DNA of 64,000 bases, from assembly GCA_046563655.1 (NCBI GenBank), contig CM102288.1, positions 3,162,001 to 3,226,000 on the forward strand, given 5' to 3'. The notes beneath the pieces were generated by a model. That model was given only the letters and a program-made list of their open reading frames with translations, made no database searches and was not told the DNA's origin. The stretch's first letter is position 1, and each line of letters starts with the position of its first letter. The translations under genes were made by a program, and so were the position numbers. This DNA comes from Yuukianura sp. NJ FZ-2021. Lineage: Eukaryota. Positions 3,700 to 39,700 of this stretch are shown here, one piece after another.

Positions 3700-4583
3700 T
3701 ACCACTTTTTAGGCGAATTTGAATTCGTCATCAACCAACAGACTCCTTTGAATTGGCGTGGTGTTTTCCGTAGAAATTCATATTGGGTAAGCCAATTCCA
3801 TGACTAAGGTGGTAAAACATCTCCGTCAACACCAATCCCACACTTCAATCAACAAATTAGAGATTTGAGTTGACCTTGCCATTTTTCATGTTCATGCAGT
3901 GTAACAAAAAACGGTGTTCCAAAAGACAATACAAGTGAATAGCTACTTCAAAGAAAATAATCTGTGAAGAATCATTGGAATTTAGGCCTTAAGTGGACAT
4001 GGATAACCAGAGATTATGCGTCCTACGTCTCTTTTGGATTCACGGAAAACCTTCTTTGTCTCAACCCATGGACATACCTGTACGGAGCATGTCGCAAAAT
4101 ATGCAAGTCATACTTTTAAAATTTCTATTTCTGGTGGCAAATTGCCAACTTGCTGACCGTTGTAGTGAAAGTGAAAATTTTGAATCTTGTTGGTTTTTAT
4201 AGCGTCATATTTTGCTGGAACTGCATGACTTGATGCATGAATTAATGCGTCAACAGTTGCAGTTGAAGAAATCATCCGATCTGGACAAAAACGGCTTTTC
4301 CAGATGACATTGTTATTGTCTGTTCCATCCAATGGAGCAGTGTTCCATGCAGAACCACGTGAGTTCAACTGCACTGTAAAGGGAACGTAAAATTCCATTT
4401 GGACAAAATACTTGACAATTACTAGTAACTGGACTAAAAATCTTTGAATCTAATCAAACAAGGGTTATTAGTAAGTGTCACAAACAACTGACATATTTAC
4501 ACATAAATTTAGTATTGCTCTCAATTGTTGTTGCTCAAGTGGGACATAACCCTGGATACTCCTTCATCGAATGTTCAGGTGCT
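3700..4583 (-). pseudogene. Possible decayed multi-exon gene
   Basis: Protein-like segments are bounded by plausible splice sites (SIQGYVPLEQQQLRAILNLC | IQRFLVQ...NNVIWKSRF...EIEILKV*LAYFATCSVQ | IIFFEVAIHLYCLLEHR) but carry in-frame stops. No family recognised. Confidence 0.25.
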
Positions 4584-7984: not shown

Positions 7985-8235
7985 ATTTTTAGCATTTTCG
8001 TGACTTTTCCAGAAGTCCTACTGTAGAAAATTAGAAGGTGTGATGATGTTTTCAAAAAACAATATTTTGGAATTTTAAAATTTCTCATAAATTAGGAAAA
8101 TGCACTTTAGTGATTTTCTCAGCGTAATCGTCAATTTTTCAGAAGTCCTACTGTAGAAAGTTAGAAGGTGTGATGGTGTTTTCAAAAAACAATATTTTGG
8201 AATTTTAAAATTTCTCATAGGAAAATACACTTTGC
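7985..8235 (+). repeat. Recent tandem duplication, period about 130 bp, two copies
   Basis: agaagtcctactgtagaaa-ttagaaggtgtgatg-tgttttcaaaaaacaatattttggaattttaaaatttctcata occurs at 8011 and 8141, nearly identical. Confidence 0.92.
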
Positions 8236-8418
8236 TATTGAATTTAAGTTTACATTTCCAGGGCGTTGCTGCTGTAAATAGAAGTGTTTCCTCCAGAAAG
8301 TTATGTAGCTGTGTCGTCACAAGAATTTGCTTACAATAATTGTAATTAAAAATTATTTTTAATTCAGACTCAGGATGCAAAAGTGACAACCAATTGATTG
8401 GTCCAGCTTGAAATCAAA

Positions 8419-9777
8419 ATGGGCTACTTCGGTTGTGGCGCCATGATTCAATTTTCAGTCATCGTAAGTACATTGCACTATGAAACTCTCAATTCCCTAA
8501 CCATTGACCTTTGACTTAGGGCTTGGTGACAATAGCATCAATGTGTAGCTTGTATGCTTGGTACGGAGACTACCTCTGGGCTGATGAACTCCAGCGCATC
8601 AAAGCGATATTTACAGATGAAGAACTGGAACTACTGGAGCGGAATGGCCAATTCTGGGACATTCCGTACTTGGGTGCTCTTGGAGGTCTCTACATTTTAA
8701 CAATTCTGCACACTGTGCTCTGTTTTTTGAGACAGCATAGCCGATTTCATAAATCGAAACTTGTAAGTTTCAAAATTCAACAAAATACCAAAATTTCAAA
8801 GTTAAAACCTAAATTCTAAATTGCAGAGCTTGATGATGACAGTGGTGATTGGACTTGGACTGATTGTGGTCAGCGCCTGTCCAGTCATCACTGCTTGGGT
8901 ATACGATGCCAACTACTACAAAGTACAAGAACATGACCGTCGTACCTACTCTTACCAAACGGAATTGTTCAACGGTTCGTCAATCAGTGTCAAAACGAAC
9001 TCAATTTTTCATTACTGCCATTTTGGCAATGGGCGCCCTCTGCAGTGGTCCAGACTCAAAGGAATTCGGATGAAAAAGTTCGGAAGCAACATTTGCCAAA
9101 AAGTGGGATTCCGCTACATCTCAGCCTTCCTCACACTCTACGCAGGACTAGTGTACTTGTTAACCCTGAAAGTGCTGGACAGTCGCCACCGTGACAAAAG
9201 TGCTGCTCACATTGCTCTGCTCTTTGACCTGTTCGGTGACCTCGAAGAGTCTATAACTGAATACAATGCAACCAGAGCAGCACAGGCAGAAGATGACGAG
9301 CACTTTGGTTTGCACATGGACATGCAAGCTTACAAACGTGAACTGCTTAAAAATACTTACCAAAATACAAAACTCCCGCCAAAATTGGAAGAATGGCTGC
9401 GGACTGGGAAGTATGAAGAGGAAGATGACGCAGCCTATGACATGGGAATTCTGGAGCCAAACCGGTATCATGTTTCGGAAGACTTGGAAGAAGATGCTGC
9501 CAGAGGTACGGTTTTTGAAATTTTGGTTAAAATTTTTTCAAAAGTAAGTTTTTGAATATTTAATACAATTTTTGAATTTTCAGGAATCCCGGGTTACTTA
9601 ACGAACATTATGGCAGCGAGACTGGAGACTGCGGGTGAAGCGGAAGCGAAAGAGAAAACAAAACGTGAAAATAAGGAAGTCGTGGATCAGCGTAAAGAAG
9701 AATGGATTGAAGCCCGAAAACAGCGTCTGCGTGCCAAACGAATTCGCTACGCCGAAGAAAGTGGAAAACGAGACTAA
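8419..9777 (+). CDS. Four-transmembrane protein of unknown function with a charged cytoplasmic tail, 4 exons
   Basis: MGYFGCGAMIQFSVI|GLVTIASMCSLYAWY (TM1), IPYLGALGGLYILTILHTVLCFL (TM2), SLMMTVVIGLGLIVVSACPVITAWVY (TM3), a Cys-containing loop of about 70 aa, YISAFLTLYAGLVYLLTLKVL (TM4), then an acidic and basic tail ending ESGKRD*. The GT-AG introns keep frame. The start codon is uncertain. Confidence 0.75.
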
Positions 9778-10959: not shown

Positions 10960-12764
10960 ATGTGGGAATTATGGAAAGGAAAAAATCTAAGTGGATTTTG
11001 TATTTTTTGGAATTTTGTACTACTTTCTCTGTCTGTCTTACCACGACTGATTTTGTCCATGAGTCTTCCACAGCAAACGGGACTTGTCTACTCAGATGGT
11101 AAGAATTTCGATAAAATTTTGAAGATAAAATTATAAAATTTTGAAAAATTTTGATTTTCGAAATCTAGAAATGGACAATGATGGAGCTGGAAGTAGCAGT
11201 AGAGTTTCATCAGAATGGAAATATAATTCTCAAGGTCACACACAAATGACAAATCTATTTCGACACTCCAATTCAGTCAATGTCGAGTGGAACAAAATTT
11301 TTGTTTGTGGAGGGCAAGGAAATCCATGTGAGTTCAAAAAAAAAATTTTTGAAAACTTTTTTGAAATTTTGTTGTTTGTTTTGAAATTTCAGGTTGTGTC
11401 GATGGGCTAAGCGTTTTTCTCACTGTGTCTTCACTGGCCAAGTCCAGTCAAGGAGTCCTGCGTGACCGTCTGATAGAACTAAACTGGAATGCTGCCGAAC
11501 CGGTACGCGGTGATTGGGTCGGTTTATTCGACCATCCACCAGATGAGTACGGTACAGATCCCTTGACACAAGTATCGGTCCTCATGTCCCGCGGGTTCAT
11601 CACATCCGACTACCGGTTGGAACGAGTTCCGCTCCGGATCGGTCAAGACCATTGTCTAGGATACTGGATCGCTTATGTCCGGGAAGGTCGCGTTTTGCTC
11701 ACGAACTGCCTCCAGATCTACCCAACATGGATGCAAGACTTGCGAGATGTAATCGGTGACATGCCGATCCATGCCCTCATGATTCCCGGTACACACAATT
11801 CCGGTAGCTGGAAGGAATACGAGGGTCCAAGTTCCGATACCGTCTTTCTCCGATTTCTAGTTTGGTAACCGCCAAAACTTAAAAATTCATAAAAAAAAAA
11901 GTTTTTGATTTCAATTTTGAATCAGTCAGGATGAATCGGTCTACAATCAATTGATGCACGGAATCCGTTACCTGGATATTCGTGTTGGTTACTACGCAAC
12001 GGCTACTGCTGGTGGCGAACGGTTCTGGATCAACCACGACTTTTACCGAATGCGTCCTCTGTCGTCGCTGATCAACGACGTTAAGCGATTTGCTGAAGAG
12101 ACGAACGAAGTCGTCATTCTGGACTTTCATAGATTTCCGGTTGGATTTGATGGACGAAGAGAGCGACACACGGAACTTGTGGAGTATCTGAACAGTGAAC
12201 TGGAGCAGTTTACAGTACCGTCTTCCTTTTGGCCAAACGCCACACCCAATGAGATTTGGACTTCCAATCGATCTGTAATCATTTCATATGCTGATACCAG
12301 AACGGCTCAACAGTATCCCAACTTGTGGCCAACACTTCCTCAGGTCACTTTTCTAAAATAAAACAACAAAATCTCAGAAAAAATATCAACCAAAAATCAA
12401 AATTTTGAAATTTCTTTACCTAATTTCTCACAGTCGCTGTTCTTTGTTGTTTCAGGAGTGGGGCGACAAGAGAAATCTGCCTGAGCTTAAATCGTTCCTG
12501 GGCGAAGCCGTCAAGAAACGTGGCGGGAAAGGTCAAGTGTGGGCTGCCATGGCTGAATTTACTCCAAAACCACTTGACATCGTTCTAAGGCCCAATTTGG
12601 GCTTACGGACAATGGCCCAAACAGTAAACATCCCGGTGACATACTGGTTCCAAGATAAGACATGGTACTCCAAATCAAACGTAATTGCTACTGATTTCTT
12701 TCTGGGTAACAACGTTATTCAGATGAGCATCCTCTCTAATTACAAAAGAGCCAAGTGCATCTAA
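10960..12764 (+). CDS. PI-PLC X domain-containing protein (PLCXD-like), predicted secreted, 5 exons
   Basis: LMIPGTHNSG (catalytic His), QDESVYNQLMHGIRYLDIRV, FWINH (second His), EVVILDFHRFPVGF, NVIATDFFLG, and a hydrophobic N-terminus. Confidence 0.93.
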
Positions 12765-13139
12765 TTATATTTTTCTTTAAATATTAATTAATACTTCAGC
12801 CATTAACATTTCTAGACTAATTTTCAGAATTTTTAGACTCATAGGATCTCATGGTCAATTAAAACCCAAAAAATCATAATTCACTAATTCAAAAGCTTTA
12901 ATCAGAGAATCTAGTAATTCTGCAACTTTAGCATCTAACACAAATCTGTACAAGTGATGGTTTGATGGTTACTTCCTGCTTTAATCTTCCAGTCCTCCTT
13001 GAATTGCCGATTCAGCGATTCAAGAAAACCTTCTCATTGCCGAATCCATGAACTCTTGTTCACTTAACCTAAAAATGGTGACGATAAAAAAAAACTTATG
13101 CGTTTAGCATATTCTTCATCAGGCTCTGGCCCCGCCCCT

Positions 13140-16100
13140 TTACAGCACATAGTCCAACTCGAATCGTCTGAATTCATTCTTGGCTTCACTTGGAACTCTG
13201 GGATACCCCATGACCAACGCATCCTGTCCACCAATGTACAACGAATTGTAAATTTTCCAGTACACATCTCGCACTTTCCGTGCTGGATGAAACAGACCCT
13301 GAAAAAACAAAGAAACAAAACAATTATTGATTCACGCTTGACATAACATCTCCCACTTCCCATAAAAAATCGAGAAAAACAGACCTTCAAATCCTGGACA
13401 TATGCGTGACTAATTGTTATTTGTTAGATGCATGACTAATTGTAGAAACTAAAAAAAATCCATACCTGTAACGTATACTGAAGGACTTTGACCGGCCCAA
13501 GTGAAACTCTCATTCCTTCTACAGCATCCATGAATGCCTGAACCAAATGTGGCGACGTCTCGAAGATATTTGGCCAAACATAGTTCAGTAGATGAACCAA
13601 AGCATCCTCACATCCAAATCCATACACTCCCAGCGCCATGTGCTTGATCGCTGCACAAGATGTTTGTCTATGGACAAGGTCACGGTCCATGAGAGCATCT
13701 TCCAGAAGTGGCGTGACAGCATAGATGTAGTCCTTCCCCATTTCGCCAATGTACTCAAACAGAAACGACAGCGATTTCAGTACTCCATTCTGAACATTCA
13801 ATTCTGGAACTCTGTATTCGTTCATAAGAGCCGGAAGGACCGTAAAAGGTGAACAAGTTTCAGCCACAATTGCAATGGCCACAGTAGTACAAACGCGGTT
13901 TTGACGTTCCTGGACTTTCAAGTTGTTCAAAAGTGTTGCCAGTACATCATGTGGTCCAATTGCTTTTGCAATGTATCCAAACGTATTGACTGTTGCTCTT
14001 CGAATGGCTTTCTTATGTGCTTTGAGTAATTCCAGCAGCTCAAAGCAAATTCGCATCCACTCACGTGCTGAAACATACTCCGGTCCACGATCGGCAATTC
14101 GCCCTACAAGATCAATACAGTTCTCTTGAACCTTCTCATGTCGATTCTTCAGAATTGGAGTGAGACGGGGCAGGAGGTCTTTGATTGGTGGAGTCATCTT
14201 GGTCATTCCAATGACATTGACAATGGCCTTCAGGGCTCCAAGGATACTTCCAAGTACTTCGGGATACTCTTCTCCCAAGTACTCATACAGAACGACTCCC
14301 AAGTGACCCATCAACTTCTCCTCTTGACAAATCTTCATCACTGCAGCGATTTTGGAAATGAGGTCAGCCGCTTGTTGCCGAACTTTGGCTGCTTTGTTGT
14401 TCAAACGCCACAGAATTGTTCCACAGATCTGTGGTAGGTAAGCCTTGACTCGCTTGCCCAGCTGATTGACAATAGTGCCAAATCCATTGAGCAGAACGAT
14501 ATCCTGTAAGATAACAAACTTAATCAATTAGTTCTCACAATTAACAAATTAGTTGTCACGATTAAGCAATTTTGAAGTTAAATTTTTTAAATCGGGAATT
14601 AAAAACGTACCTCTGTCGTTTGTTCCTGAAAAGCATACAGAATTCCATCGATCAGCTGTTCTTCCAACCGTGAATCAATATCCGCTGCTCCTAAATTTCC
14701 CATAGTTTTTTCAATCGTTTCGACGACCATTTTCCGGTAAGTTTCGTTTTCATCTTTCAAATCATCCACCACTCTATTGATAATTTCCGAAACTCCAACT
14801 TTATTTGCAATTTCCACTGTTGTGTCCACAAGTTGTCGGTAGTTCCTCTTGTCCAGAGCCATTCGATGATTCCAAAAGTGTCGAAAGAAGTGCGGCAGGA
14901 TTTCATCCTTGATGTACTGCGGTTCTACTCCATCAGTTGCACAACACTGCTTCACAACTTTCAGAACAATTTTCTTCATCTCTTCATCAGGAGACTGAAA
15001 CTCTCGAATCAGGATCAACATAACTTCCTTCGTGTAGTAACTCGCATATTCAGCATCCATAAGTGGAATCAAGTATCCAATGGCTTTTAAAAATGCTGCC
15101 AACCCTTTACCACGATGTGACCGAATTCCCTTCCATAGTGGTTTGAGAACAGAATCGAAACTTTCAATTCCATAAGGAGTAGCGGCTTCCGCGAGAGCAG
15201 CAATTGCCAAAGCAGTGATCGTTCTTACTTTTTGCTGCTCGTCGACCAATCCATGTTCGATAATTTCCACCAAGCTCTTTAAATGTGGTAAAATTGCACA
15301 CCCCATCAAAATTGAAATTTGTTGAACAATTTTGATTCCAGTATGTCTTGCTTGCCATGACTTTTTACTTTTACATACAGCTTTGAGAAATGGTAGTAGA
15401 GATGGAATTCCAAGTGCAGAAGCGACGACAGCAAATGCTCGAGCAGTCGTATTTCGAACGAATTCGTCAATATTGTCAATATCCGGTCTCATCGTGGAAA
15501 TCATTGTAGCAAGTCCAGCAGCCTTGGCCAAGTTTGAAATAATTTCACGACCTTCGACACGAGCATAGTAGTCTTCATCAATCAGTAGAGGTTCAATAAC
15601 AACAAGGATTTTGTGTACATAAGGCCTAACCAGGTCGTCCAACTTGTACAGAACGCGGTCAATGACCTTGACCAGAAGATGACGTTCTTGATCTTCCAGT
15701 GTAGGCGACATGAGGAGCGGCAGAATTTGATTAAAAAGTGGTCCAGCTCCAAACTCCCTTGCCTTGTCAGTAATTTGCCGAAGTGCTGATTTTCGCATTG
15801 GTGGCGTTCCGTTCTTGATTTTCAACAAAAGTTTCATAATTTTTCGTTCTCGTTGTTCTTCAGGACTCAGTGATTCTTCATCAACATCCAGCAGCAATTT
15901 ATCAAAGTACTGGGCGTCTTCTGGTTTTAAAAAAGGAAGATTGGCTTCTTTCGGTTGTGTTTCCATGAACTTTCCAGCCTTTTCTTCCTGTTGAATAAAG
16001 AATCCCTGGGGAGTTCCAGCAATTGGTGTTGGAGTGGCTGCTAATTTCCGAGCTGGTGTCCGGATTGGAATGTAGCCAGCAGGCGGTGGCAACACTTTGT

Positions 16101-18817
16101 AGCCTGGTGGAAACATTTGATCCAGTTCATCGTCAGCCAACGGACGATTCCTATCATCAATTTCTTTTTCCCAGCGATAGGCCTGTAGTTGCTCTGGAGT
16201 CATCTGCAGCAGTTGACTTGGAGAAGGAGTGGCCATGGCCATTGCTTTAGCTCCTATAGGCGTTGATCCTCCAGGGGTCATCAACATGCTCATACTTGGC
16301 GTATGAGGAGTCATGCTTGGTGTGGCTGGAGTTGATGGTGTCATGGCCACTGCTGGCGTTTCATCCCAACGACTTTTGCGCTTACTGGCTGATGGAGTAG
16401 GCGTATCTTGGATAATATCAACTTCAGTTCTATGAACTTTCGGAGTTTCAGCCCATCCACTGTTATGTCCCGGCGTTTCTCGTTCAGTTTTAGGAGTTTC
16501 ATCCCAACGATTTCTTCTAGCGGATGCTCCAATGTGTCCAGGAGTGGCATGGCCTGGTGTCATGGCATGTGCTGGAGTGGGATCCCATTGTTGAAAGCCA
16601 GGAGTTACTCCTGGAGTTTCACTTCCAAGCGGTTTGTGTCCAGGCGTTTCATCCCAACCAGTGTGGCCTGGAGTCTGAAACAGACAAAGAAACATTAACA
16701 ATTAACATTATGTAGTTAGAAAAACTGTCAGTATAATTACTGCTTCCAACTCACTTCAGCATCCCAAGAAGGCTTCTTTTTCGCTGGAGCCAAATTTTCA
16801 TCAGCTGTCGGCTGCTGTTGATCCCATCGACCGCGCTTCTTCGTGGCTGCTGCAACGGCGGCCGTTTGCTCACCGTTTGTAATAGCAGCTTTCAGCGTTC
16901 CATCTTTGGATTTCTCAACCAGTCTCCGCCGAAACTGCATTGCATAAAAACGTTAGTCAAAATTACATTAATGGCACAGAATTGTTAGAAGCCTTGGCAA
17001 ATTGACTTACGTCACTTTCTTGTGATCGGAGTTGCTGTTCACGCATAACATCCACGTAAGTCCGGGCTCCGACATCCGGGGTTTTCCCACCTTTTTGGAA
17101 CAAAAAATAAAAAGAACAAATTAGAAACGCTGAACTTTGTCTTTATAATGCCTAATCTCAAAACTAAAAAAATCAGCTCCTGAAGCATCATCTCGACAGT
17201 CGACTATTCCTGAAAACGTTACCCGCGTCTTCCAATTCTGTCACTAAGCAAGTTAGTTTTTTTTTAACGTGGAAAAGTTTGAACTTTAGATTGAAAAAAT
17301 GACAAAATTGGAAGAATTTTGTCCCGTATCGGTCATCCTTCCAATCAGTTGCTGGGTATTGTCTAGAAATCATTTGCGATTAGTAAGATTCGTGTAATCA
17401 TTCATACGATCTTTCATTCAAGTGAAGGTATAGAGATTTCAAAATCCATTGTTTACGCAGAAAAGTTCTCTGTTCTATTGAAAACGGTTAAAATTAACGG
17501 CGAAAAGGTGAAATTTCTCGAGAGTAACGCAAGATTTTGAAATCTTTCTTTACATTTTGAAAATTTGAAAAATCGCTGATCCGTGGGCTGAACTACGGCG
17601 AGGACATTGTAGCTTCCCATGAGTTCGTGGACTCTTACCTTCGTAGATGAGAGTAAGACAGCATAACGATTTAGCCTCTCATCCTATCATCATCGCAATC
17701 CCATCTAAAAGATCAGCTCAGCAGTTTCTCTACATTTCATTTTCACAAATCTGAAAAGGAGGGTCAGATTGGCTTTTAGAATCAAAGACAGAGTGGAAAC
17801 ATTGGTGATGACAGTGGGCCCTTACAACGAAATACCCCGACAGACTCAATCCACTTACATTGGCACTTCCGCAGCCATGGCCACTTAGGTTGTCGATCCA
17901 CATTGCAAGGAAACCTAGTGGGAGTGGTTCCTTATGAATCATTTCCTATTCAATTAGCTGTCAAAAGTGGTCAGTAGTAAACATTCGCTGACCAGCTCCA
18001 GCTGATTGACATAACACGTATACCACAATCACACATTCCAAACACACACAATTCATAAACCCATCATCATAACTTTTAAAAAACTACCAAGACATTTGTA
18101 CCGATTTTGCGTAGGTTTGAACTTACCGTCAAGAAATTCGTCAAATCTTTCGGGCGAAATGACCCGCTTTTGTGCTCTTTGAAGGTATTCATTTCCGGAC
18201 TGTCGTTCCATAATCGTCTGCCTCTTGTGCTCCGCAAATGGATCATGATCCTTGTCGGCCTGTTGAAATATAATGTAAATGGGATAAATAAAAGTTCCTA
18301 GTTTAATAGAGCTAAATCTTTTGTAGTACCTGAGGGATATCGTTGAGTATTGAAAGCGGTGCTGAATAATTTTTGCCTTTGACCGGTCCGACAGGAGCAG
18401 CATCAACATCATCCTCCTAATAAAGTAAGTAAAATAATTCATATTAACTTTACTTACACAAACACCACACCCAATTCAATTAAATTAGTACTAATAGTAA
18501 GTTGTTAAGTTGGTCTTACGTACCTCAACGTCATCATTTGGAGCAATTGTGGTGTAGTATCCGTCAAACTTGCTGTTAGATCCATAAATATCCAGGTCAA
18601 ACTTTCCCTTCTCATTGAATCCGATTCTGTTTTCTTCAGGAACGTCCAACTCTTGTTTCTTTTTTCCTTGCATCTGGGTCGCCAGTGCCTCGATTTCTAG
18701 GAATAAGAGCCGATTAATAAGAATGACGTTTTTACTGTACTGTCACACTTAACTTTTGAAAGTATTGAGCTGAAGCTGACTGAACTTACCTTCCTTAGTT
18801 TTAGGAGCCCCTGCCAT
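13140..18817 (-). CDS. SF3B1: Splicing factor 3B subunit 1 (SAP155), multi-exon
   Basis: [22 protein letters not shown] start, RWDETP ULM repeats, many TP sites, [12 protein letters not shown] p14-binding region, HEAT repeats ([49 protein letters not shown]), and the C-terminus [18 protein letters not shown]...RFELDYVL*. Confidence 0.99.
17223..17237 (-). other. Candidate 15-nt in-frame micro-exon, or stop-containing extended exon, in the long SF3B1 intron
   Basis: ACTAAC branch motif, then ttgcttagtgacag|AATTGGAAGACGCGG|gtaacg. It adds ELEDA in frame, or reads on to [16 protein letters not shown] if the donor is missed. Confidence 0.45.
17639..17704 (-). other. Candidate 66-nt poison exon in the long SF3B1 intron
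   Basis: gctgatcttttag|ATGGGATTGCGATGATGATAGGATGA...CGAAG|gtaagag has a near-consensus donor. In the incoming phase 1 it reads DGIAMMIG*. A second acceptor (ctgaccctccttttcag|17750) gives DL*. Confidence 0.7.
17859..17957 (-). other. Candidate 99-nt poison exon in the long SF3B1 intron
   Basis: tactgac branch motif, cacttttgacag|CTAATTGA...GCCAAT|gtaagt. In phase 1 it reads A-N-stop. An alternative donor gtaagg lies at about 17825. Confidence 0.65.
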
Positions 18818-19588
18818 CCTGAAGTCACGAATCTGACAAAACGAAACGTTCGCAAAATTAAGTTTAAAACTGTGAAATGTGAATTGATCAAGTGTTTTAA
18901 CCATTCGGACGGTACCTTATTTGCCAAAAGCAGCTGTTTTGTTTGATGTTGTGGTAAAAGAAATGTGAAAGAGAACCGTTTACTAACCACCGACCGGACG
19001 TAGATCGATCACCCAACGTAGCGTTAACAGGTAAGGTTACAATCCAATTCCAACTCCACTAACTTACTTAAGCATTTAAATCCAAGCTTCTTAAAATTAA
19101 CTAGCGAAACCAATCGTAATCCGTGCCGATTTCACTTTACGAAAAATTGGCAAACAAAAATAAGTCGGAATTCGAAAAATCGAAGTCGTGAGAGGGGAAG
19201 GGGCTTGGGTCGGGTGGGGTGCGGTGCTTCAAGGCGTGTGAAATAGTAGTAATGGGCAAACGAAGCCAACGTCAAATTAAAATTTACTAGAAAAATTTCG
19301 GAAAGATGAAAGATAGTTTTAACTGAATTAGTACTACTACAAACAAGTTTTAACTTTAAAAATTTATTTTGAGTTCTGCATCTGCTATCCCAAATTAAGT
19401 TGGAATCATAAAAGTAGTAGAATTAATTTGTAAGTTAGTACATAACAACATTTATAAAGTTCTCAAAACTACTGCTATCGTTACTTCGCTACTCAGCATT
19501 TGAGTAACTCTACGTAACTAATTCTGATGTTCTTAACTAACTTACTATGCTGAAATGCTGATCGTCAGTGTTAATGCTAGATGAGGAT

Positions 19589-20647
19589 TTAGGTGTCAAT
19601 GGTTGTGGTGGGGCTAGTTGATTGTTCAGCATCACCATCAGCAGCGATTGACGATTCTGCTTGTTCTGCAACGACTCCAGACCCGTCTTCTTCTCGAGCT
19701 GCAGGCGTTTCTCGTCCCCCGCCGTCACTTTGGTCGCCATCTTCATCCTCCGAATCCTTGAGCTGCTTGGCTTTTTGCAACTTTCTTCCCTGTTCCAATT
19801 CCAAATCGCTTCCGTCATCTGAAGAATACGTGTGTCCGGATGTACCACCACCTTTCTTGTATCGGTTTTTAATTGCTGCAAGGCTGATGGAATTGCCATC
19901 TTCGGAGTACTCGTCATTCAAGTAGGACGCACTCAATATGCCCTTAGCTCCTTGTTCTCGAATGCGTCGCTGCTGATTTTCTCTACGCGTTGCAGCCCTG
20001 TGCTTGTCTTCTTCTTTCTTGATCAAAGCTCGACGTAGAGCAATCGGATCCATTCCACCAGCCGAAAAAGGATTAAAGATGAACTTGATTCCACGCACTT
20101 TTGAATTTTGATCGACGATGGACTTGGTCATCCTCTGATGAGTGACGGATTCAGTCGACTGTGGGCGGAACGTCAACTTGGAACGAAAGACAGCTTGACC
20201 TTGGAGACCCATGCCTTCTTTCACGAACAAATGGTTGTGGTCATCATGAAGTGACTGTTTCTCGACATCGAATACTTCGTCACCGAGATGAAGACTTAGA
20301 GAACCGTCGGACCATCTGACGAAGCGAGCATTGGATTCCTTAACGAAGGCCCCCTTCTCATTGAAACGCTCACGCCAGCGAATGGTATTCTGTACTTTGA
20401 GTTTCAGTTTTTGATTTCCCTCGTCATCCAGAATTTCTTCATCGTCAATTTCATCTTCGTAAGTCTGAGGGTCAAATGGACGAGTGTCTACAGACAAGAA
20501 GTTCGGTAATTTGACGAAATGGATTCCTCTCCCTAGATCCACCGAAATTTTGGGAACTTCCACACCAATACGAGTTTCCTCTTCTTGTTTTACGGGTTCA
20601 GCCGGTGGTTCGTGGATGTCGTTGGGACTTTCCATGTTCACCGACAT
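19589..20647 (-). CDS. LEO1: RNA polymerase-associated protein LEO1 homolog (PAF1 complex); intronless CDS lacking the usual long acidic N-terminus
   Basis: Leo1 domain FVKLPNFLSVDTRPFDPQTYEDEIDDEEILDDEG..KLKVQNTIRWR..ESNARFVRWSDGSLSLHLGDEVFDV..DHNHLF..GLQGQAVFRSKLTFRPQSTES.TH, plus ISLAAIKNRYK. The first in-frame ATG is at 20647, just after an acceptor at 20659. Confidence 0.92.
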   Translation of the reverse strand: MSVNMESPNDIHEPPAEPVKQEEETRIGVEVPKISVDLGRGIHFVKLPNFLSVDTRPFDPQTYEDEIDDEEILDDEGNQKLKLKVQNTIRWRERFNEKGAFVKESNARFVRWSDGSLSLHLGDEVFDVEKQSLHDDHNHLFVKEGMGLQGQAVFRSKLTFRPQSTESVTHQRMTKSIVDQNSKVRGIKFIFNPFSAGGMDPIALRRALIKKEEDKHRAATRRENQQRRIREQGAKGILSASYLNDEYSEDGNSISLAAIKNRYKKGGGTSGHTYSSDDGSDLELEQGRKLQKAKQLKDSEDEDGDQSDGGGRETPAAREEDGSGVVAEQAESSIAADGDAEQSTSPTTTIDT

Positions 20648-21377
20648 GAGTACTGGTTCTATAGTTAAAAATCCGTTAGTCAATCCGGTCACAGGTCAAT
20701 GTCAAAGATACGAAACAGAAACCGGATACCGGAAGGAAGGAACGTGGTATGCCAGTCTCGCGAATTTGCCGCGCAGAACGTTGGAGCAGACGAGCTGTGA
20801 CAAAGGTAACATGCCAATCAGCAAGCTTTGTGATAACATTACTTACATTATGATAAATTCAATCAAATTCCTGTAATGGAATGCAAAGTTTAATTATTTG
20901 TTAATTGTTAAACATCAATTATTCAAGTCAATAATTCTTTAAGTTTATATGTAATTAACTTATAACTGTTAGTGAATTGTGATGACCATCACTGCATCAT
21001 TTTCTGAGCATGGGTGACACTAGGCTATAGAGTAACTTTTATAGAGTCTAACCGAGTCATGTGTTTACCCGCGAAGTTGCATCATTTCAACATTCGGTTC
21101 TTTTTTTTTGTGAGTGAGTGAGTGTGCTTTTTTTATTCTGTTCGATTACACCGCCTTTTATGCTGCTGAAGTTAGTTGGTGAGTTCTTGATTAATTGCTA
21201 ATTGATTTAGATTGCGGGAGGAGTAAAGGTAATGTAAATTGATTCTGACATTATCCTGCATGGTGTGTTACACATGTACTTTGGCTGATTGATAAACTTG
21301 ACTGATTTGTTTTCAGAATTCAGAGTTGAAAGTTCTCATATCAATCAAGGAAATTTCATTGACCCGACGGAAGGAAA

Positions 21378-33723: not shown

Positions 33724-36700
33724 TTAAATTTGTGTCGTAATCACCGTTCTTCGCGTAATTACTGCCGGTTTCTCCTTTTCGTAATTTCCATTCAAGTTCC
33801 CATTGTTTTGACTCAAGACGGAATTTGCTCTGGGCTTCGGTACTGGCGTTGGTGTGAGCTGCTTCTCATTATCCTGCAATAAAAACCAAAAACAAAAAAA
33901 ATTACTTAAAGAACTTTTAAAAAATCTTAAACCTTAAGCTTTCAGTGATCTCCCGCCGATTAATGGTAGTTGACAACATGTCACTTTAAAAATTAATCAA
34001 GCCAAGGTTAGGTTTTTAGGTGTTTGTGGCAAAGTGTAAACAAAAGTGGTTAAGCTAAAAGCCCATTTCCAAGATTCAGATCAGCAGTTAGCTTAAATTG
34101 CAGTTTCTCCAATTCCAGCGTCTTTGTGGACCAATTCCAGCGCTTATTTCACAGATCCCATCAGCAGTAAGTAGAAAAAGCATCCCAAGAAGAAACCATC
34201 TCCCACAGCTTAGAAAAGATTTTGAAAAAGTAGAAAATCGAGTTCCAGGCCCCGGAGTGAAGCAGTAAGAACCAAGAGCCTCCAGAAATCTTTATGTCCA
34301 ACATCCCAGAGAGATTCAGCGACTCAATTTGACTCGCCTCCAAAACTTACTCTTTGATTTAAGTTTGGACTGCTGAGCTTAGCCTTTGTACACGGATCTT
34401 CTTGGCCTCTGTCCATTGCCGGGGAAGTGGACATGAGGAAGGGATTATGGAAGGGATTCGTGCTATTTGACATACTTAGGAGGGCAGAGGTGATGGCATC
34501 CAATTGCTCAAAGTCAAACGGATTTCCTGGAGGGGGACTTGAGGATAGTGGGTCCTTGACAGTGAGTTCAGTAAAAAATGGATTAGTGGAAGATCCATTC
34601 TTGACAGGAGATGAAGGGACTTCAGTAATTACAATTTCCTTGTCTCCTTCATCCACTCCTTTCTTAAACTTTGACTCTCCATTTTTGAGCTCCACACGAC
34701 CCTGGCCACTGAAGTGGGTCAAGGTCACGGAGCGCGTGATGTCAGGCTCAAGGAGTGGCAAACTGTCATCCCCACTCAACTGTTCGTCACTGGAGGAGGA
34801 GTGGCCACCAAATGGTGCTGGAGGGGGCGAGGACGTGCGGGGAGGAAGTGGTGGTGGTGTTGAGGAAAAGGACAGCGTTAACTTATCTCCTCCCTAATTT
34901 ACAAATTCAAACAATACAACATTAATTAGTAATTACACTTTTTACAAAAAACACGCCCGAATGAACACAAACAAAATTTTGAAAAAACGAAAAACACGCA
35001 AGGTCATTTCGAAACACATTTCCTAAACTACAAAGTTCTGTAAGTTAGTGACACGTTTTGAATTTGAATTTAAAACTTCTACTTTTTCTTTTTTTAGAAA
35101 AACAAAAACTCACCACTGAAATGAAAGTTGCCGCTTCATTGCTGTGATGATGGTCGCCATTTTGGATCGTGTTTTCGCGCTTTTTCACCGAAAATAAGTC
35201 TCTGCAAATAAAAATCAACATAAATTACTGCATAATCCAGCAAAGAATCCTCAAAAAGTGACAAATTTTCAAAAAAATTTGAAAACCACTTACGGACTAA
35301 TCGCTCCAGGCACTTTCCGCAGCTCTTCGTCAATTTTGGCTTTCCAGATATTACATTTCAGCTGATCCGGTGGCAGTGGCTTTGGCAGGGAGACATATTT
35401 CGTCTGATTATTCGGCACAATATTCAAATCTGCTTCAGTCGGTATCCCTGGACTCTCTGAGGTGGCCACGACATCAACCCCACCAAAGAACCCACCAGCT
35501 TCCTTTGCAATACTCTTGATCAGAGTATCCAACGGATCATCTTTTGGACTTGGCGAAACCTCAACATCCACCACTTCCAAAGGACTAGGCGTTGAGGTGG
35601 ATCTGGAAGTTGGCGTTTGTGGTGGCGACATTGAATTACGTCCACTTGGAGCTGGCGGTGAAGCGTTTTCGATTCTTGGACGCAGAACGCGTGGTTCCTC
35701 GGACAAAAGTAGATCGGTTTCAATTTCAGTTGGTCGTTTGACTGCTGCTGGTTTCCTTTCTGCAAGTGACGGTGATGATGGAAAATCCTTTGGAATTTGT
35801 GGCAATGGTTCTGCTGCTTCGTTGTTTGGTTTTTCTTTCTGCCGCTCTCTCAGAATATGAGACTGTCGACGAGCGTAGCGTTGGCTCGGCCGTCTTTCAA
35901 ACTGGACTGTTCTTCGAGATCTATTTTGTGCAATCGTTTGAACTTCTGTTCGACCGCTGAAATCAAACAAAATCCTTGTAAGTTCACTGAAACCAACCAC
36001 TAATTCAATCCGAGAGAACTGGTTTTACCTGTATCGAAAGCGGGATCCCATTCGGAAAAAGTTTTGTCTGGCGTTTGGAGCCTTCGCTGCCGCTTTGAGT
36101 CTGAAGAACGCATGGTGTTCAACTGCACATTTCCTAAAAAAAATCAAAAATACACAAAACCTTGTCACAAATTTCCGAATTCGTTCTGATTTTGAAACTT
36201 TAGAATAAAGATTTACCAAAGGTGTTTCGCTGCCTTTTCATTGTGTAATCTGCATCAAAATAAATTAACAATTCCAATTATCATCCAACAACAAAAGCTG
36301 ATTTTCAATTTCGAATCGAAATCGATTCTTCTTTCATTGAAATTTTGAAATACCTAAACACAAACGTGTGTTCTCGCTCTTTTCCTTCTTCGTCATCCTC
36401 CACTACAATCAGCGTCAGTTTCTTCTTTTTGAAATCCAATTTCGTAATTTTAGGCCAAAAGAACAGACCGATTTTGGAAGTTCCCTCGAACACTAAAATC
36501 CCAGTTGGTGTAAGGCCGAGTGAATACTCTGCTCCATCTTTACCCTAAAACACAACACAAAATTAGCAACACACAAACAACTAATTAATTTAGATCAATT
36601 CATCAGAACTTAATCGATCTTACAAGAACAGTGTGCATGTCAACTCCATACATCTCCAACCACTTTGCCTTGTTCAAATAATTCATCTCTGCTTGTGCTG

Positions 36701-39700
36701 GTGTCATTCCCCTGCAAAAAAAATGCATTTCAAAATTTTCATCATTTCAACATTTCTCATCATTTTCTAAGCAATTTTCGAAAATTCTCATCTTCAGAAT
36801 TTCAATTTTTACCTCAATTTCTTAAATTCCTCCAAAATTCCAATCTCCACCTCTTCATTCTGTTCTTCGAAAAAACGAAATTCCGAGACGAATGCGGGTG
36901 TATGAATCTCTTCTTCGTAGTCTCCGGCCTCCGCTGGACAAAAATCCAAACAATTATTACAAAACACCCCACAAAACTAAAGTTTCACAGTTAAACTTTA
37001 ACTCAGACATCAAACCCAAATCAGTGAAAAATGTCAAAGTGCTTACACTGAATACACAGTGCTGCCAGTTCAATGGAAGTTTGGAGCGGTGGTTGCAACT
37101 TCCCAGTGAGCACATCTTGCTTAATTTGTAAAAAGAACTGATACCTGTAAACCAAAAGACAAAAAACTTAATTAGTTAAACCATTAAGCCTTAATTTATT
37201 AATTCACACGTTTTCGTCACCTCCCTCCCATTGCATAACATTCACTAATAACTGCCCAATCACTTTCTGGCACCACAAAGCCCCATTTAACTCCATCTTT
37301 TAATGTCATTACGCTGCAACTTAAATCCTTTGTTACTTTCTCCCTCGTCATTGTCTAAATGATCAACGACAATTAAAATGTGGCGTCTCAGAGCAGTCAC
37401 TCTGCACACAATAGTCGCAATCTGTGCAAAAATCTTGCGCAGATTTCATATCAAAAGTTAAAATCAACGTTAATTCTTCAAAATCATCATCATCTGCTGT
37501 TTCCACATGCGCAAAACGTAAGTCAAAGAAATTCTCCAAGTTGTCTCCCAGCACATTTTCGCATCCTGTTTTGCCAATTCTCACCTCGTCAATTCCTCTC
37601 GGAGATTATGAGGTTCAGATGAATAGAATTTCACCTTCAGTCTAAAAGTAAATGGAGGCCCAACTGCAAATAAAAAAAAAAGAAAATCCAACAATTAAAA
37701 ATCTCACAAAACTAATTTTATCTTATCACCCACCCACACACATTTAAAAAATTCACACAACTCAAAAAAACAAGTAAAATTTTCACATCCTGTTTAATTA
37801 TCATCTTAAACCCAATTCCCCTGCAACTTTCATCGGAAATTAATCCAAATCCATTTGAAAATCTAGATACAACTTTCTTCCACAAAACTTTTAAAGCTCG
37901 ACGCCATCCAGCAAACTTCTTCTCACCAGCTCCTATTTTTTAAATTTTCAACGTAAGATATGACAGGCCAACTTTCGCAGTTTCTAAAAAAAAATTATTT
38001 TGCTAATTTCTGTGTTTACGTGTAAGTTTAACTAGTTAAAAACCACAAACCGTAGTGCCAAAATCGCAATTTTTTGCATTCAAAAAAAAATTCATCGTAT
38101 TTTTCAAGGCCTCCGGGGGTCCTGGCACCGTAAAATCTTTGCAAATCGTAAAGCACCGAGGAAGCAACCGTACACTTCCTCGTCTGTCTGTTCGCCTCTG
38201 CATTTTCCTCCTGGCTCCAAGATTTATTGCAAATTCAAATCCAATCGTATTGGAAGTATCGTAACACACCAAATTTCTACACAAAGAAGGATTGGCAACA
38301 AAATACCCTATCATCCACATCCTCTCAAATTCAAGATTCATCCCTGCCAGGAGCTCATACTGCTTCTACATCTACTCAACCCTCCAACACCTCACCAATA
38401 AGTTTTACACATATTTTGCACATTTAAGTACGTTGAATCTTCATCTTGCACGTTTTGCACGTTGAATCTTGCTTCTTCTTCCCTGGTCAACGTCCTCCAC
38501 CAACTTTAAAACAACTCCGCCCAGTCACTTCCCAATCATAAATTAATTGATCCCTCACACTTTACATCTAAGAAACATTTAACCGCACTGCTCAACATCC
38601 AACTTCACTCGCAGAAAAATCCAACTTAACAAAAATGCAAAATCCAACTTCAAAAAAATTATGCAAAATCCAACTTCAAATTTGGCAAACCCCCTCAAAC
38701 CTAACACAACCCGGTAAAAAATCACACCTAAGTACAGTTATCTTCAATAAAAATATTCTTTGATAACTTTTTGCCTTAAATTCAGGTTTAGAAAAATGTA
38801 AGGTCAAGTTGTCAGTTAAACTTTGCGTCAACGTCAAAGCCCGGAGGAAGTTGTCACATACCTTGCATTTTCCTAATCTTAAACTTCCTCGCAAATTAGT
38901 CGAATTCGCTGTGCAAAATTACCCCACACCGTACACAAACAGAAAGTTGCGGAAGCCATTTCCCGGGGCGGTGGCGCCGGAATTCAAAATTCACAAGTCA
39001 CGTTAATTCTCACGCCAACATTCGAACATTCTACAATCTCCGCTCGCTACTTCTCAAGCATCCTACCCATCATCCTCCGAGGTCAACATGACAATGTCCG
39101 TGGCCTTCCCGTGACATTTCAAATGTCACTCCGCCCTCAAATGTCTAATCGTTACCATTTTGAAAATCACAAGGAAACGACATAACAATACCCAAAATCT
39201 ACCTCATCATCTCTCATTATAAAGATCCACCAAGAGGAACCAAAACTGCCAAACGCAAAAAAATCAAAAAGCAAAAAACGTCCTCCAGGACTAACAAATT
39301 CAACAAAGCAAGAAAGTAACAAGAAAAAAAATGAAGCCGAATAGGTTCCTCATCTTAATTTTTTGCATCTGCCTCTCCTGCATCTCTTGCCATTAGAAAG
39401 GAAACAAGTTTCCTGCTCCCGGCAGTTGATTCCAATGACCAACCGAAACGAATCTGAATATGCAGACACTAAATCCCACAAACACCACAAAAGAAGTCAC
39501 ACAAAAGAATTCCTCTACCGAATTCTCCCTTCCCAGGAAATAACAAAAGAAAATAGCATATTTCTTATTATAATCCGCCGAAATGCATGCAACCAAAGGC
39601 ACCGAAGTGCGTAAAGAAAGTAACAAAAAATGACAGAGACAAGGGCGGATACTTTTCAACTTTTCTTTCATTTGCAACGGAAGTGGCATATGATACACAT

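Follow-up and report, generated by a model that had tools for sequence, protein, structure and literature searches.

Within the spliceosome, SF3B1 is the core protein that binds the branch site. In the human gene, experimentally validated cryptic stop-containing exons within intron 4 promote retention of this intron (PMC6097662), and SF3B1 is among the splicing factors most frequently mutated in human blood cancers (PMC11162794). PMC6097662 and PMC7373989 describe the regulated intron 4 in vertebrates only, with conservation from fish to mammals, and the open-access literature searched yielded no paper on an element of this kind in invertebrate SF3B1 genes. The window (the whole stretch of 64,000 nucleotides that was analysed) contains an SF3B1 gene with a single long intron, and the question arises whether this intron is the counterpart of the regulated vertebrate one. 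Judging from its sequence, intron 4 is probably a conserved regulatory intron carrying an unproductive-splicing module, that is, a poison or decoy exon.

Gene Structure and Position of Intron 4

The gene is on the minus strand; its model of nine coding exons translates without interruption into 1313 aa. The long intron is the fourth coding intron, with the boundaries GACG/gtaagt ... ccaaaaag/GTGGG (slashes mark splice junctions); it splits EFLDG/GKTPD, as the initial annotation had proposed, and is in phase 1. The seven other introns are 93, 107, 70, 76, 80, 107 and 167 nt long, so that the contrast drawn there between introns of about 60–165 bp and one of 1036 bp is borne out (70–167 nt vs. 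1036 nt). The last full codon of exon 4 (D) aligns to human SF3B1 D138, and the split falls where human D138/G139 aligns. The intron may correspond to human intron 4, provided that the human exon 4/5 boundary lies at this codon. The AAG acceptor is indeed weak, scoring 5.4, the second-lowest value among the eight real acceptors (range 3.6–14.0), on a PWM that approximates the metazoan consensus, is not fitted to the host genome and was identical for all controls. It is not conserved: two relatives have strong CAG acceptors (14.2 in L001 and 10.8 in L002, see below). The features of the region are collected in Table 1.

Table 1. Features of SF3B1 intron 4 and the adjacent exons (positions in the window; scores are PWM scores).
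Feature	Position	Strand	Description
SF3B1 coding exon 4	18127..18259	-	133 nt, ends with ...EFLD + base 1 of the Gly codon
SF3B1 intron 4	17091..18126	-	1036 nt, phase 1, GTAAGT...AAG
UG/GAAUG-rich tract	18023..18056	-	ATGAATTGTGTGTGTTTGGAATGTGTG..., first part of intron 4
99-nt candidate exon	17859..17957	-	acceptor 5.8, donor AT/GTAAGT 8.6, A-N-stop; weak candidate
Island A	17902..17943	-	38/43 vs. L001 (E 8e-10); small hairpin AAGGAACC..GGTTTCCTT within the 99-nt candidate exon
Island B	17701..17782	-	71/82 vs. L001 (E 5e-19); CTGAC branch-like site, TCCTTTTCAG acceptor (17750), TCTTTTAG acceptor (17704)
Candidate poison cassette exon X	17639..17750	-	112 nt (66 nt with the 17704 acceptor), in-phase D-L-stop
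Island C	17632..17649	-	exon X donor CATCTACGAAG/GTAAGAG, with its GT at 17638-17637; local alignment z 5.0
Stem D, 5' arm	17533..17545	-	GATTTCAAAATC
Stem D, 3' arm	17434..17446	-	GATTTTGAAATC; island E lies 14 nt downstream
Island E	17355..17421	-	54/67 vs. L001; core 17363-17420 conserved in four species
Possible second cassette Y	17223..17362	-	140 nt, island-E AG to weak donor CGG/GTAACG; speculative
Stem F, 5' arm	17300..17315	-	TCTTCCAATTTTGTCA
Stem F, 3' arm	17228..17243	-	TGACAGAATTGGAAGA, ends 4 nt short of the donor-like site at 17223; z 5.9
Island H	17145..17169	-	22/25 vs. L001; TTTTAGTTTTGAGATTAG/GCAT, acceptor-like 7.1; z 9.0
SF3B1 coding exon 5	17011..17090	-	80 nt, 26 protein letters

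Conservation of Intron 4 in Relatives

The comparison set comprised the window, two metagenome relatives, L001 and L002, and a third relative, L003. An intron at the same codon and in the same phase is present in L001 (6137–7201, 1065 nt) and in L002 (3798–5031, 1234 nt), where, identically to the window, it splits the Gly codon (phase 1) after (F/L)(A/L)D. The other SF3B1 introns are about 73–235 nt long in L001, and mostly about 70–235 nt in L001 and L002 taken together. L001 is also syntenic with the window, with a LEO1-like gene upstream. L003 has no GT where the exon-4 donor would be expected, and is possibly not an ordinary copy of the gene. A search with its intron-less N-terminus (142 aa) returned four proteins among seven candidates, all of them genomic ORF fragments of L003 relatives and uninformative on isoforms. 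A further candidate from the genome contig scan, L004, was discarded as a 21-aa chance match on an Actinomycetes MAG contig with 70% GC; a scan of viral contigs for more relatives found none.

Fourfold sites are saturated between the window and L001 (61/165 identical), and six of the short introns do not align, their interiors being 32–49% identical. Against this background, intron 4 retains six islands with about 80% identity or more (38/43, 71/82, 18/23, 54/67, 23/29 and 22/25), and the intronic blastn matches at word size 11 fall in intron 4 only. The indels inside these islands have lengths not divisible by three. The islands are single-copy within the window and the loci of the relatives. 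An origin from a mobile element was rejected, as neither the intron nor the islands have other copies in the window or these loci and none of the six intron ORFs matches Pfam.

Splice-Site Content and Candidate Exons

All internal AG and GT sites listed in the initial annotation are present (acceptors 17957, 17750, 17704, 17474, 17362 and 17237), with an 18-nt candidate at 17474, TACTAAT upstream of 17362 and ACTAAC upstream of 17237. Three of the six acceptors (17750, 17704 and 17362) are conserved; 17474 and 17237 are not, nor is the AG of 17957 at the aligned position of L001. L001 does have a GTAAGT (7.8) a few nucleotides off. The further idea of an intron packed with a ladder of sites fails as an argument from density. 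With the lowest-scoring real sites as the cut-off, the sense strand of intron 4 holds 12 acceptor-like and 4 donor-like sites, and the antisense strand 9 and 5, respectively; 500 dinucleotide shuffles of the intron gave 9.85 ± 2.5 and 3.4 ± 1.7. Among 124 tiles of 1023 nt covering both strands of the window, 40% hold at least 12 acceptors and 44% at least 4 donors. The density is thus the same as in the shuffles and in the other 1-kb tiles, and equal density was among the outcomes that the annotation itself had named as able to overturn its claim.

This equality favours an ordinary long intron with chance motifs and residual neutral similarity. We give that explanation a negligible probability, since neutral similarity is contradicted by the saturated fourfold sites, the unaligned short introns, the matches at E 5e-19 and 8e-10 and a block common to four species (island E, below).

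What is unusual is one pair of sites, the acceptor at 17750 (8.7) and the donor at 17639 (10.5). These are the best acceptor and the best donor of intron 4, both within the range of real sites, and they delimit candidate exon X. Exactly one pair of a strong acceptor and a strong donor 25–150 nt apart occurs in each of the window, L001 and L002 (112, 102 and 46 nt), and an equally strong pair was found in 21, 19 and 31 of 3000 shuffles, respectively, at thresholds chosen after data inspection; the tests are not fully independent because the window and L001 are kin. In L003, the donor has no strong acceptor ahead of it. The 102-nt counterpart in L001 likewise reads D-L-stop, and the 46-nt analogue in L002 would shift the frame. 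The sequence of exon X is conserved between the window and L001 only, the L002 analogue being positional. In the window, the stop comes two codons into the exon and four introns follow downstream, which places it over about 50 nt ahead of a later exon junction, as in AS-NMD poison exons. The MAFFT global alignment displaces island C, which contains the donor, by 8 nt.

The other candidate exons are less convincing. Island A, within the 99-nt candidate, was not detected in L002 or L003. The donor of cassette Y (5.8) is conserved in L001 (GG/GTAAAG, 5.9), and in L002 and L003 the donors that follow island E are weak and do not align.

Each of the four species has its strongest internal donor (10.5, 10.5, 11.5 and 12.4) at most 300 nt upstream of island E; the shuffle probabilities of this placement are 0.0225, 0.019, 0.0085 and 0.001, with thresholds set after data inspection. 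Such an arrangement could also serve constitutive stepwise (nested or recursive) removal of a long intron, with no level-setting role, in an organism whose splicing otherwise works by intron definition on introns of about 100 nt. The candidate sites would cut the 1036 nt into pieces of 169, 108, 276 and 132 nt, which is ordinary intron size, and the distance from the X donor to the island-E AG is 143–296 nt in all four species, an interval that stem D would shorten. The strong donor moreover follows an AG and a fairly pyrimidine-rich stretch in every species (GAAG/GTAAGA, CAAG/GTAAGA, CCAG/GTAAGG and TAAG/GTAAGT), with acceptor scores of 5.7, <4.0 (L001), 4.4 and 5.7, the AG being also part of the donor consensus. 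Recursive splicing is, however, typical of introns of tens of kb. Ligation of the X acceptor to exon 4 would regenerate no 5' splice site, because the exon starts with ATTTGT, and stepwise removal leaves unexplained a 1-kb intron kept at one position in three lineages. As the putatively orthologous human intron is also regulatory (PMC6097662), we regard stepwise removal as quite unlikely.

Island E, RNA Stems and UG-Rich Motifs

Island E consists, in order, of GAATG..GTATGAATGA..TTACACG..TTACTAAT..ATGATTTCTAG, the first base after the AG being 17362. The core of about 60 nt can be summarised as GURUGAAUG..CUACAC..UACUAAU..UAG, with the AG 17 nt past UACUAAU. It was matched between the window and L003 (E 1.4e-5) and between L002 and L003 (E 8.4e-7), with z values of 23, 5.7 and 9.5 and 28 invariant columns. 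CUACAC is presumably complementary to the part of U2 snRNA that recognises branch sites, but lacks the bulged adenosine. The AG itself scores poorly as an acceptor (0.3–4.0 vs. 3.6–14.0 for real acceptors) because it has no pyrimidine tract; therefore, island E may be a protein or snRNP binding platform rather than a 3' splice site. RNAalifold on island E gave only a 5-bp helix with no covariation. An alternative terminal exon after island E was rejected, with no AATAAA or ATTAAA downstream in the window, L001 or L003.

Two long-range stems bridge or flank these sites. Stem D (13 nt, 100% complementary) is conserved in L001 in both arms and not in the loop, and it appears in the MFE fold of the window and of L001 (z −2.75 and −3.78); at its end, one A-U pair is replaced by U-A between the species, a compensatory double change. 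Stem F (16 nt, 94% complementary) has a 5' arm conserved in L001, and three A/G changes in the partner arm preserve A-U or G-U pairing; it likewise appears in the two MFE folds (z −3.69 and −2.3). Both arms of both stems are thus kept while the loops vary, a sign of function at the RNA level.

Early introns often hold transcriptional elements, and the islands might accordingly act as a DNA-level enhancer or promoter, or belong to a hosted small non-coding RNA, the likeness to splice sites being incidental. The hairpin of island A and island H, neither with a clear splicing role, would fit such a function, as would the poor PWM score of the island-E AG. The conserved letters, however, are those of the splice consensus and on the sense strand only (TCCTTTTCAG and TCTTTTAG directly before their junctions, AAG/GTAAGAG, TACTAAT). 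The complementary arms with variable loops, the indel lengths and the lack of Pfam matches in all six intron ORFs also argue against this explanation, and we consider it very unlikely. A scan of positions 12000–20000 against Rfam gave no family at the gathering score; the one hit up to E 1, suhB/mmgR (16339–16419, plus strand, E 0.75), falls in exon 7 and thus outside intron 4.

Clusters of TGAATG and GTG, as in the UG/GAAUG-rich tract of the window, are likewise present in L001 (intron positions ~90–115) and L002 (~235–262). In the four introns taken together, GAATG occurs 18 times vs. 4.4 expected (z 6.2), at a density of 3.9–4.9 per kb in the introns vs. 1.0–1.4 per kb in the window. GT[GA]TGAATG has five matches on the two strands of the window, L001 and L002, all of them in intron 4 and in sense orientation. 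TDP-43 represses cryptic exons at UG tracts, and the GAATG repeats, which have the form of TDP-43/TBPH motif clusters, are candidate binding sites by motif match. Island E of L001 contains GUGUGAAUGA, the first ten letters of a 12-mer oligonucleotide used with the TDP-43 RRMs (PMC8523171); 22 papers mention this 12-mer together with TDP-43.

The sensor may thus be a TDP-43/TBPH-type UG/GAAUG-binding protein that occupies the GURUGAAUG clusters upstream of the internal 3' sites and silences the cryptic exons, in which case SF3B1 would follow the activity of that protein by cross-regulation rather than autoregulation. The enrichment of GAATG, the confinement of GT[GA]TGAATG to intron 4 and the ten-letter match in L001 speak for such a sensor. 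The link is, however, one of motif match; the island-E copy of the window deviates at one position (GUAUGAAUGA), and CELF/Bruno-type UG binders or RNA structure could explain the motifs. We hold cross-regulation of this kind to be possible, although doubtful.

Proposed Mode of Regulation

A conserved module with an unproductive splicing outcome is suggested because the long intron, the islands, the paired splice signals, island E and the stems recur at saturated divergence. From the position and length of the intron, its conservation, the strength of its sites, the stops and the complementary arms, we infer how the sites would be used, how the products would become unstable or the intron be retained, and what would choose between the outcomes. 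The core would be the non-coding cassette X (17750 or 17704 to 17639), whose inclusion would introduce a stop or frameshift right after codon 140, with the core of island E (17363–17420) lying 70–300 nt further downstream. The spliceosome could join the exon-4 donor to the acceptor of X, and the donor of X either to exon 5 or to the island-E AG; the resulting mRNAs would end translation early and be degraded. Alternatively, the internal sites may tie up the terminal ones in non-productive pairings, which would leave the intron in place. In either case, the share of productive exon 4–exon 5 splicing would set the level of SF3B1, and stems D and F together with the GURUGAAUG clusters could tune which pairing wins.

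A more far-reaching version, which we consider unlikely, is that the switch is ancestral to bilaterians and that 17363–17420, with the consensus branch site UACUAAU beside CUACAC, is a U2 snRNP trap gated by TDP-43/TBPH-type GURUGAAUG sites, with the branch-point reader itself or the activity of U2 and TDP-43 setting SF3B1.

If the unproductive-splicing module does operate in invertebrates at the same intron, this kind of control over a core spliceosome protein would predate what has been shown so far by hundreds of millions of years. The whole element is about 1 kb long, which would make its dissection possible in small, compact genomes, and the four-species element combining a branch-site consensus with TDP-43-type motifs offers a short target for mutagenesis.

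Comparison with Known Systems

The closest parallel is intron 4 of human SF3B1, with the decoy exons E4a–E4f described by Parra et al. 2018 (PMC6097662) and an antisense follow-up (PMC7373989). Judging from these sources, the two introns share the gene, probably the aligned codon, an outlier length (>1 kb in human), stop-introducing cassettes with paired sites and more than one candidate cassette. Of the architecture that the initial annotation claimed to be shared with the vertebrate intron, the conserved long intron, the stop-containing exon (17750 or 17704 to 17639) and the TACTAAT/AG element at 17362 are retained, and the ladder of dense sites is not. The human cassettes are, as described, 29–56 nt long and lie in an intron of several kb, whereas exon X measures 112 or 66 nt (46 nt in L002) in introns of 1.0–1.2 kb. 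Judged by eye, the published 25-nt antisense sequence for the human decoy donor offers no convincing resemblance. The use of the human exons is documented in these papers by junction reads, RT-PCR, U2AF eCLIP and minigenes, whereas the parallel drawn here is at the sequence level, at which the intron has the outlier length, the paired 3' and 5' sites, the non-coding cassette and the conservation (islands B and C vs. L001, not L002 or L003) of a decoy intron.

A second parallel is the poison exon of animal SF3B3 with an intronic stem-loop concealing the branch site (PMC11162794; PMC13100119). As far as these sources describe it, both cases concern genes for SF3b subunits of the U2 snRNP and combine a poison exon, a conserved structure near a branch site and conservation beyond vertebrates. 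SF3B3 is, however, a different gene, and stems D and F bridge or flank sites with no visible hiding of UACUAAU.

Ultraconserved poison exons have reportedly been found in SR and other splicing-regulator genes (Lareau and Ni, both 2007, are said to have described them). These are likewise conserved stop-containing cassettes in splicing factors and follow the same homeostatic logic. The SR-gene elements are of vertebrates, and their coupling to NMD and their auto- or cross-regulation are proven, whereas conservation here favours the splice sites and flanks over the exon body.

Cryptic exons repressed by TDP-43 likewise have UG/GAAUG clusters just upstream of internal 3' sites of non-coding exons. 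In intron 4, conservation extends to the motif clusters as well as the exon signals, in contrast to the human TDP-43 cryptic exons, which are mostly non-conserved.

The recursive splice sites, or ratchet points, of Drosophila, reportedly described by Burnette in 2005, resemble the X donor in having AG/GTAAG after pyrimidines, a feature present in all four species. Intron 4 is about 1 kb long, in contrast to the tens of kb of the Drosophila ratchet introns, and a separate strong upstream acceptor defines a cassette.

The SF3B1 gene, its long intron and its relatives

Nine coding exons on the minus strand of the window (18817 to 13140) specify a complete, 1313-aa SF3B1 protein. Its C-terminal HEAT part can be aligned over its full length to the human SF3B1 chains in the PDB. 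Intron 4 splits the protein site EFLDG|GKTPD; the remaining seven introns measure 93, 107, 70, 76, 80, 107 and 167 nt. The D encoded by the final complete codon of exon 4 is the aligned partner of human D138, so the split corresponds to human G139, which we take to be the exon 4/5 boundary of human SF3B1. Directly upstream on the same strand lies a LEO1-like (Paf1 complex) coding exon (19592-20695), whose protein resembles a cluster with mostly arthropods among its known members. From this, the source can be placed as an invertebrate, probably an arthropod. Elsewhere in the window, a strong GC skew of −0.25 to −0.43 (C over G, plus strand) with positive AT skew is sustained over ~10 kb (36000-46000). 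A small tandem repeat at 38616-38680 is the only one in this region, and no long ORF stands out.

Of 362 pattern matches returned by a metagenome scan for the exon-4 peptide, three encode a relative: L001 (89% identity), L002 (70%) and L003 (62%). The same Gly codon is split in the same phase by introns of 1065 nt in L001 and 1234 nt in L002. In both, most of the remaining SF3B1 introns measure 70-235 nt; L002 has a second long intron (~750 nt, 8205-8982) where the window has intron 7 (aa 915). At the level of sequence, these comparisons show a long intron held at one codon in three lineages. A LEO1-like gene is also found upstream of SF3B1 in L001 (3928-4788, 69% identity), and the locus is therefore syntenic. 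The HEAT region of L002 carries many additional introns absent from the window, and L001 has two (near aa 373 and 403) within the window's single 2064-nt exon.

L003 is a 1257-nt contig with intron-less exons 1-4 (residues 1-142 at 183-640, without introns 1-3), no GT at the expected exon-4 donor and no exon 5 in the 649 nt beyond; we drew on it for intron-like sequence alone. Such a structure may reflect an aberrant copy, a pseudogene or a misassembly. Past exon 4 it continues as FFADDLQMV-stop, where the related database ORFs P0002 and P0003 read FFADG. Scans of genome_contigs and viral_contigs yielded no further relatives. A 21-aa match to the exon-4 peptide (62%; L004, 6001-6063) on a 70% GC contig, from a MAG labelled uncultured Actinomycetes, was dismissed as chance, the rest of SF3B1 being unmatched.

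Features of SF3B1 intron 4 and its candidate elements
Feature	Position	Strand	Details
SF3B1 intron 4	18126 to 17091	−	1036 nt, phase 1, GACG|gtaagt ... ccaaaaag|GTGGG
Island	17943-17902	−	38/43 identical to L001
Island	17782-17701	−	71/82 identical to L001
Island	17455-17434	−	18/23 identical to L001
Island E	17421-17355	−	54/67 identical to L001
Island	17322-17294	−	23/29 identical to L001
Island	17169-17145	−	22/25 identical to L001
Inverted repeat 1	17533-17545/17434-17446	−	found in window
Inverted repeat 2	17300-17315/17228-17243	−	found in window
Candidate exon X, window	17750 (or 17704) to 17639	−	112 or 66 nt; D-L-stop in phase
Exon X, L001 counterpart			102 nt; also D-L-stop
Exon X, L002 positional equivalent			46 nt; one strong pair (acceptor 10.0, donor 11.5); frameshift

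Splice-site density and conservation

The initial annotation had described intron 4 as packed with cryptic and poison exons. All the sites it listed are present at the coordinates it gave, with their stops. Sites were scored with a simple donor/acceptor PWM, built by us to approximate the metazoan consensus and used without change on all controls, with the minimum scores of real SF3B1 sites (donors 4.9-12.4, acceptors 3.6-14.0) as the cut-off for counting. The sense interior of the intron holds 12 acceptor-like and 4 donor-like sites, the antisense strand 9 and 5, and dinucleotide shuffles (n = 500) 9.85 ± 2.5 and 3.4 ± 1.7; at least 12 acceptors occur in 40%, and at least 4 donors in 44%, of 124 window tiles of 1023 nt taken on both strands. 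Since the counts are close to those of shuffles and tiles, the description as packed does not hold: judged by the annotation's own criterion, the density is that expected by chance. The sole pair standing out is acceptor 17750 (8.7) with donor 17639 (10.5), equalled in 21 of 3000 shuffles at thresholds picked post hoc. The sequence observation was correct and its statistical framing wrong; the interpretation gains partial support from comparative evidence beyond the annotation's reach. Three of its six acceptors (17750, 17704 and 17362) have an aligned AG in L001, and three (17957, 17474 and 17237) do not.

Between the window and L001, third codon positions of exon 8 differ by 48.6% and fourfold sites are identical in 61 of 165 cases, so neutral sequence is saturated. 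The inner parts of six short introns are 32-49% identical, and just one of the six contains a 20-column window above 70%. This patch lies in intron 8 (13326-13344, minus strand; ATGTCAAGCGTGAATCAAT vs ATGCCAAGCGTGACTCAAT in L001; 20-column identity 0.85). Intron 4, aligned end to end, has 49% identical columns overall but six islands in which identity reaches 80% or more; a further conserved stretch around 17639, CATCTACGAAG|GTAAGAG, emerges from local alignment. In word-11 blastn of the whole gene, non-exonic matches are confined to intron 4 (E 8e-10, 5e-19). Chance, to which the site counts conform, is a highly improbable account of the intron 4 pattern as a whole.

The islands are single-copy, their indels are not multiples of three, and ORFs spanning them have no Pfam matches. 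Conservation of this kind could mark a DNA-level element or a hosted RNA, a reading we hold to be quite improbable; the conserved stretches include splice signals in sense orientation. Island 17782-17701 contains a CTGAC branch-like site and two acceptors, TCCTTTTCAG (exon start 17750) and TCTTTTAG (17704). Paired with the conserved donor AAG|GTAAGAG, these acceptors delimit the stop-containing candidate exon X. L002 has no sequence match to exon X. The alignments show that the sense-strand splice signals on either side of this stop-containing segment are under purifying selection.

Island E, repeats and RNA stems

Of the intron 4 islands, only E, through its core (17363-17420), can be recognised across the four species (z-scores of 23, 5.7 and 9.5 in local alignment; 28 invariant columns; BLAST E 1.4e-5 for window-L003 and 8.4e-7 for L002-L003). 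Its order is GAATG, GT[GA]TGAATG, CTACAC(G), 5-7 nt, (T)ACTAAT and ~14 nt ending in ATTTNTAG; position 17362 is the base following its AG. The best-scoring internal donor (10.5, 10.5, 11.5 and 12.4) lies 70-240 nt upstream of island E in 4/4 species, with shuffle probabilities of 0.0225, 0.019, 0.0085 and 0.001 for this layout. The distance from that donor to the island E AG, 143-296 nt, is an ordinary intron size, as constitutive removal of the long intron in steps would have it. We regard such removal as unlikely. The AG scores only 0.3-4.0 as an acceptor because the preceding stretch is A-rich, which makes it less likely that island E is simply a 3′ splice site.

At positions 220-297 of its intron 4 (4017-4094), L002 carries the island E layout a second time, with three GAATG, AGTAAT and then TTTGCTAG. 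This copy precedes L002's first strong internal donor and matches island E of L003 (E 8.6e-4), which suggests duplication of the module within that intron.

GAATG occurs 18 times in the four introns against 4.4 expected (300 mononucleotide shuffles). When the window, L001 and L002 are searched on either strand for GT[GA]TGAATG, all five matches are in intron 4 in sense orientation. They group into two clusters, and an internal 3′-site-like element lies downstream of each. Both inverted repeats keep their arms in L001 and not the intervening sequence, and minimum-energy folds of both species include the two predicted helices (z −2.3 to −3.8). The first helix has one A-U to U-A double change, and the second three A/G changes with pairing kept. 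The comparison shows conserved complementary arms and a branch-site-like element with UG/GAAUG repeats in four species.

Proposed working and comparison with known systems

We consider it fairly probable that intron 4 is an unproductive-splicing module tuning SF3B1. The spliceosome would use the candidate sites; inclusion of exon X, or engagement without inclusion, would lead to degraded or retained RNA, and the share of this route relative to productive exon 4-5 splicing would tune SF3B1. SF3B1 or U2 snRNP as the putative sensor, as the initial annotation proposed, takes about half of this confidence and is itself only tentative. An equally concrete candidate is a TDP-43/TBPH-type protein: the GT[GA]TGAATG motif coincides with the first part of an RNA that PMC8523171 uses with the TDP-43 RRMs.

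According to PMC6097662 and PMC7373989, about half of the SF3B1 transcripts of human late erythroblasts retain intron 4, which contains six cryptic exons, 29-56 nt long and with conservation reaching fish or reptiles; all but one of them introduce a stop. When NMD is inhibited in cells, these exons are seen spliced to exons 4 and 5; they are bound by U2AF, and minigene retention needs them. PMC11162794 and PMC13100119 describe a conserved poison exon under structure control in animal SF3B3. A literature search of open-access papers and bioRxiv preprints found no description of an invertebrate SF3B1 with such an element. The present case rests wholly on comparative sequence from four species; at that level, the window's intron 4 has every feature of the human intron 4 class. 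If the reading is true, a clinically relevant regulatory intron would extend far beyond vertebrates.
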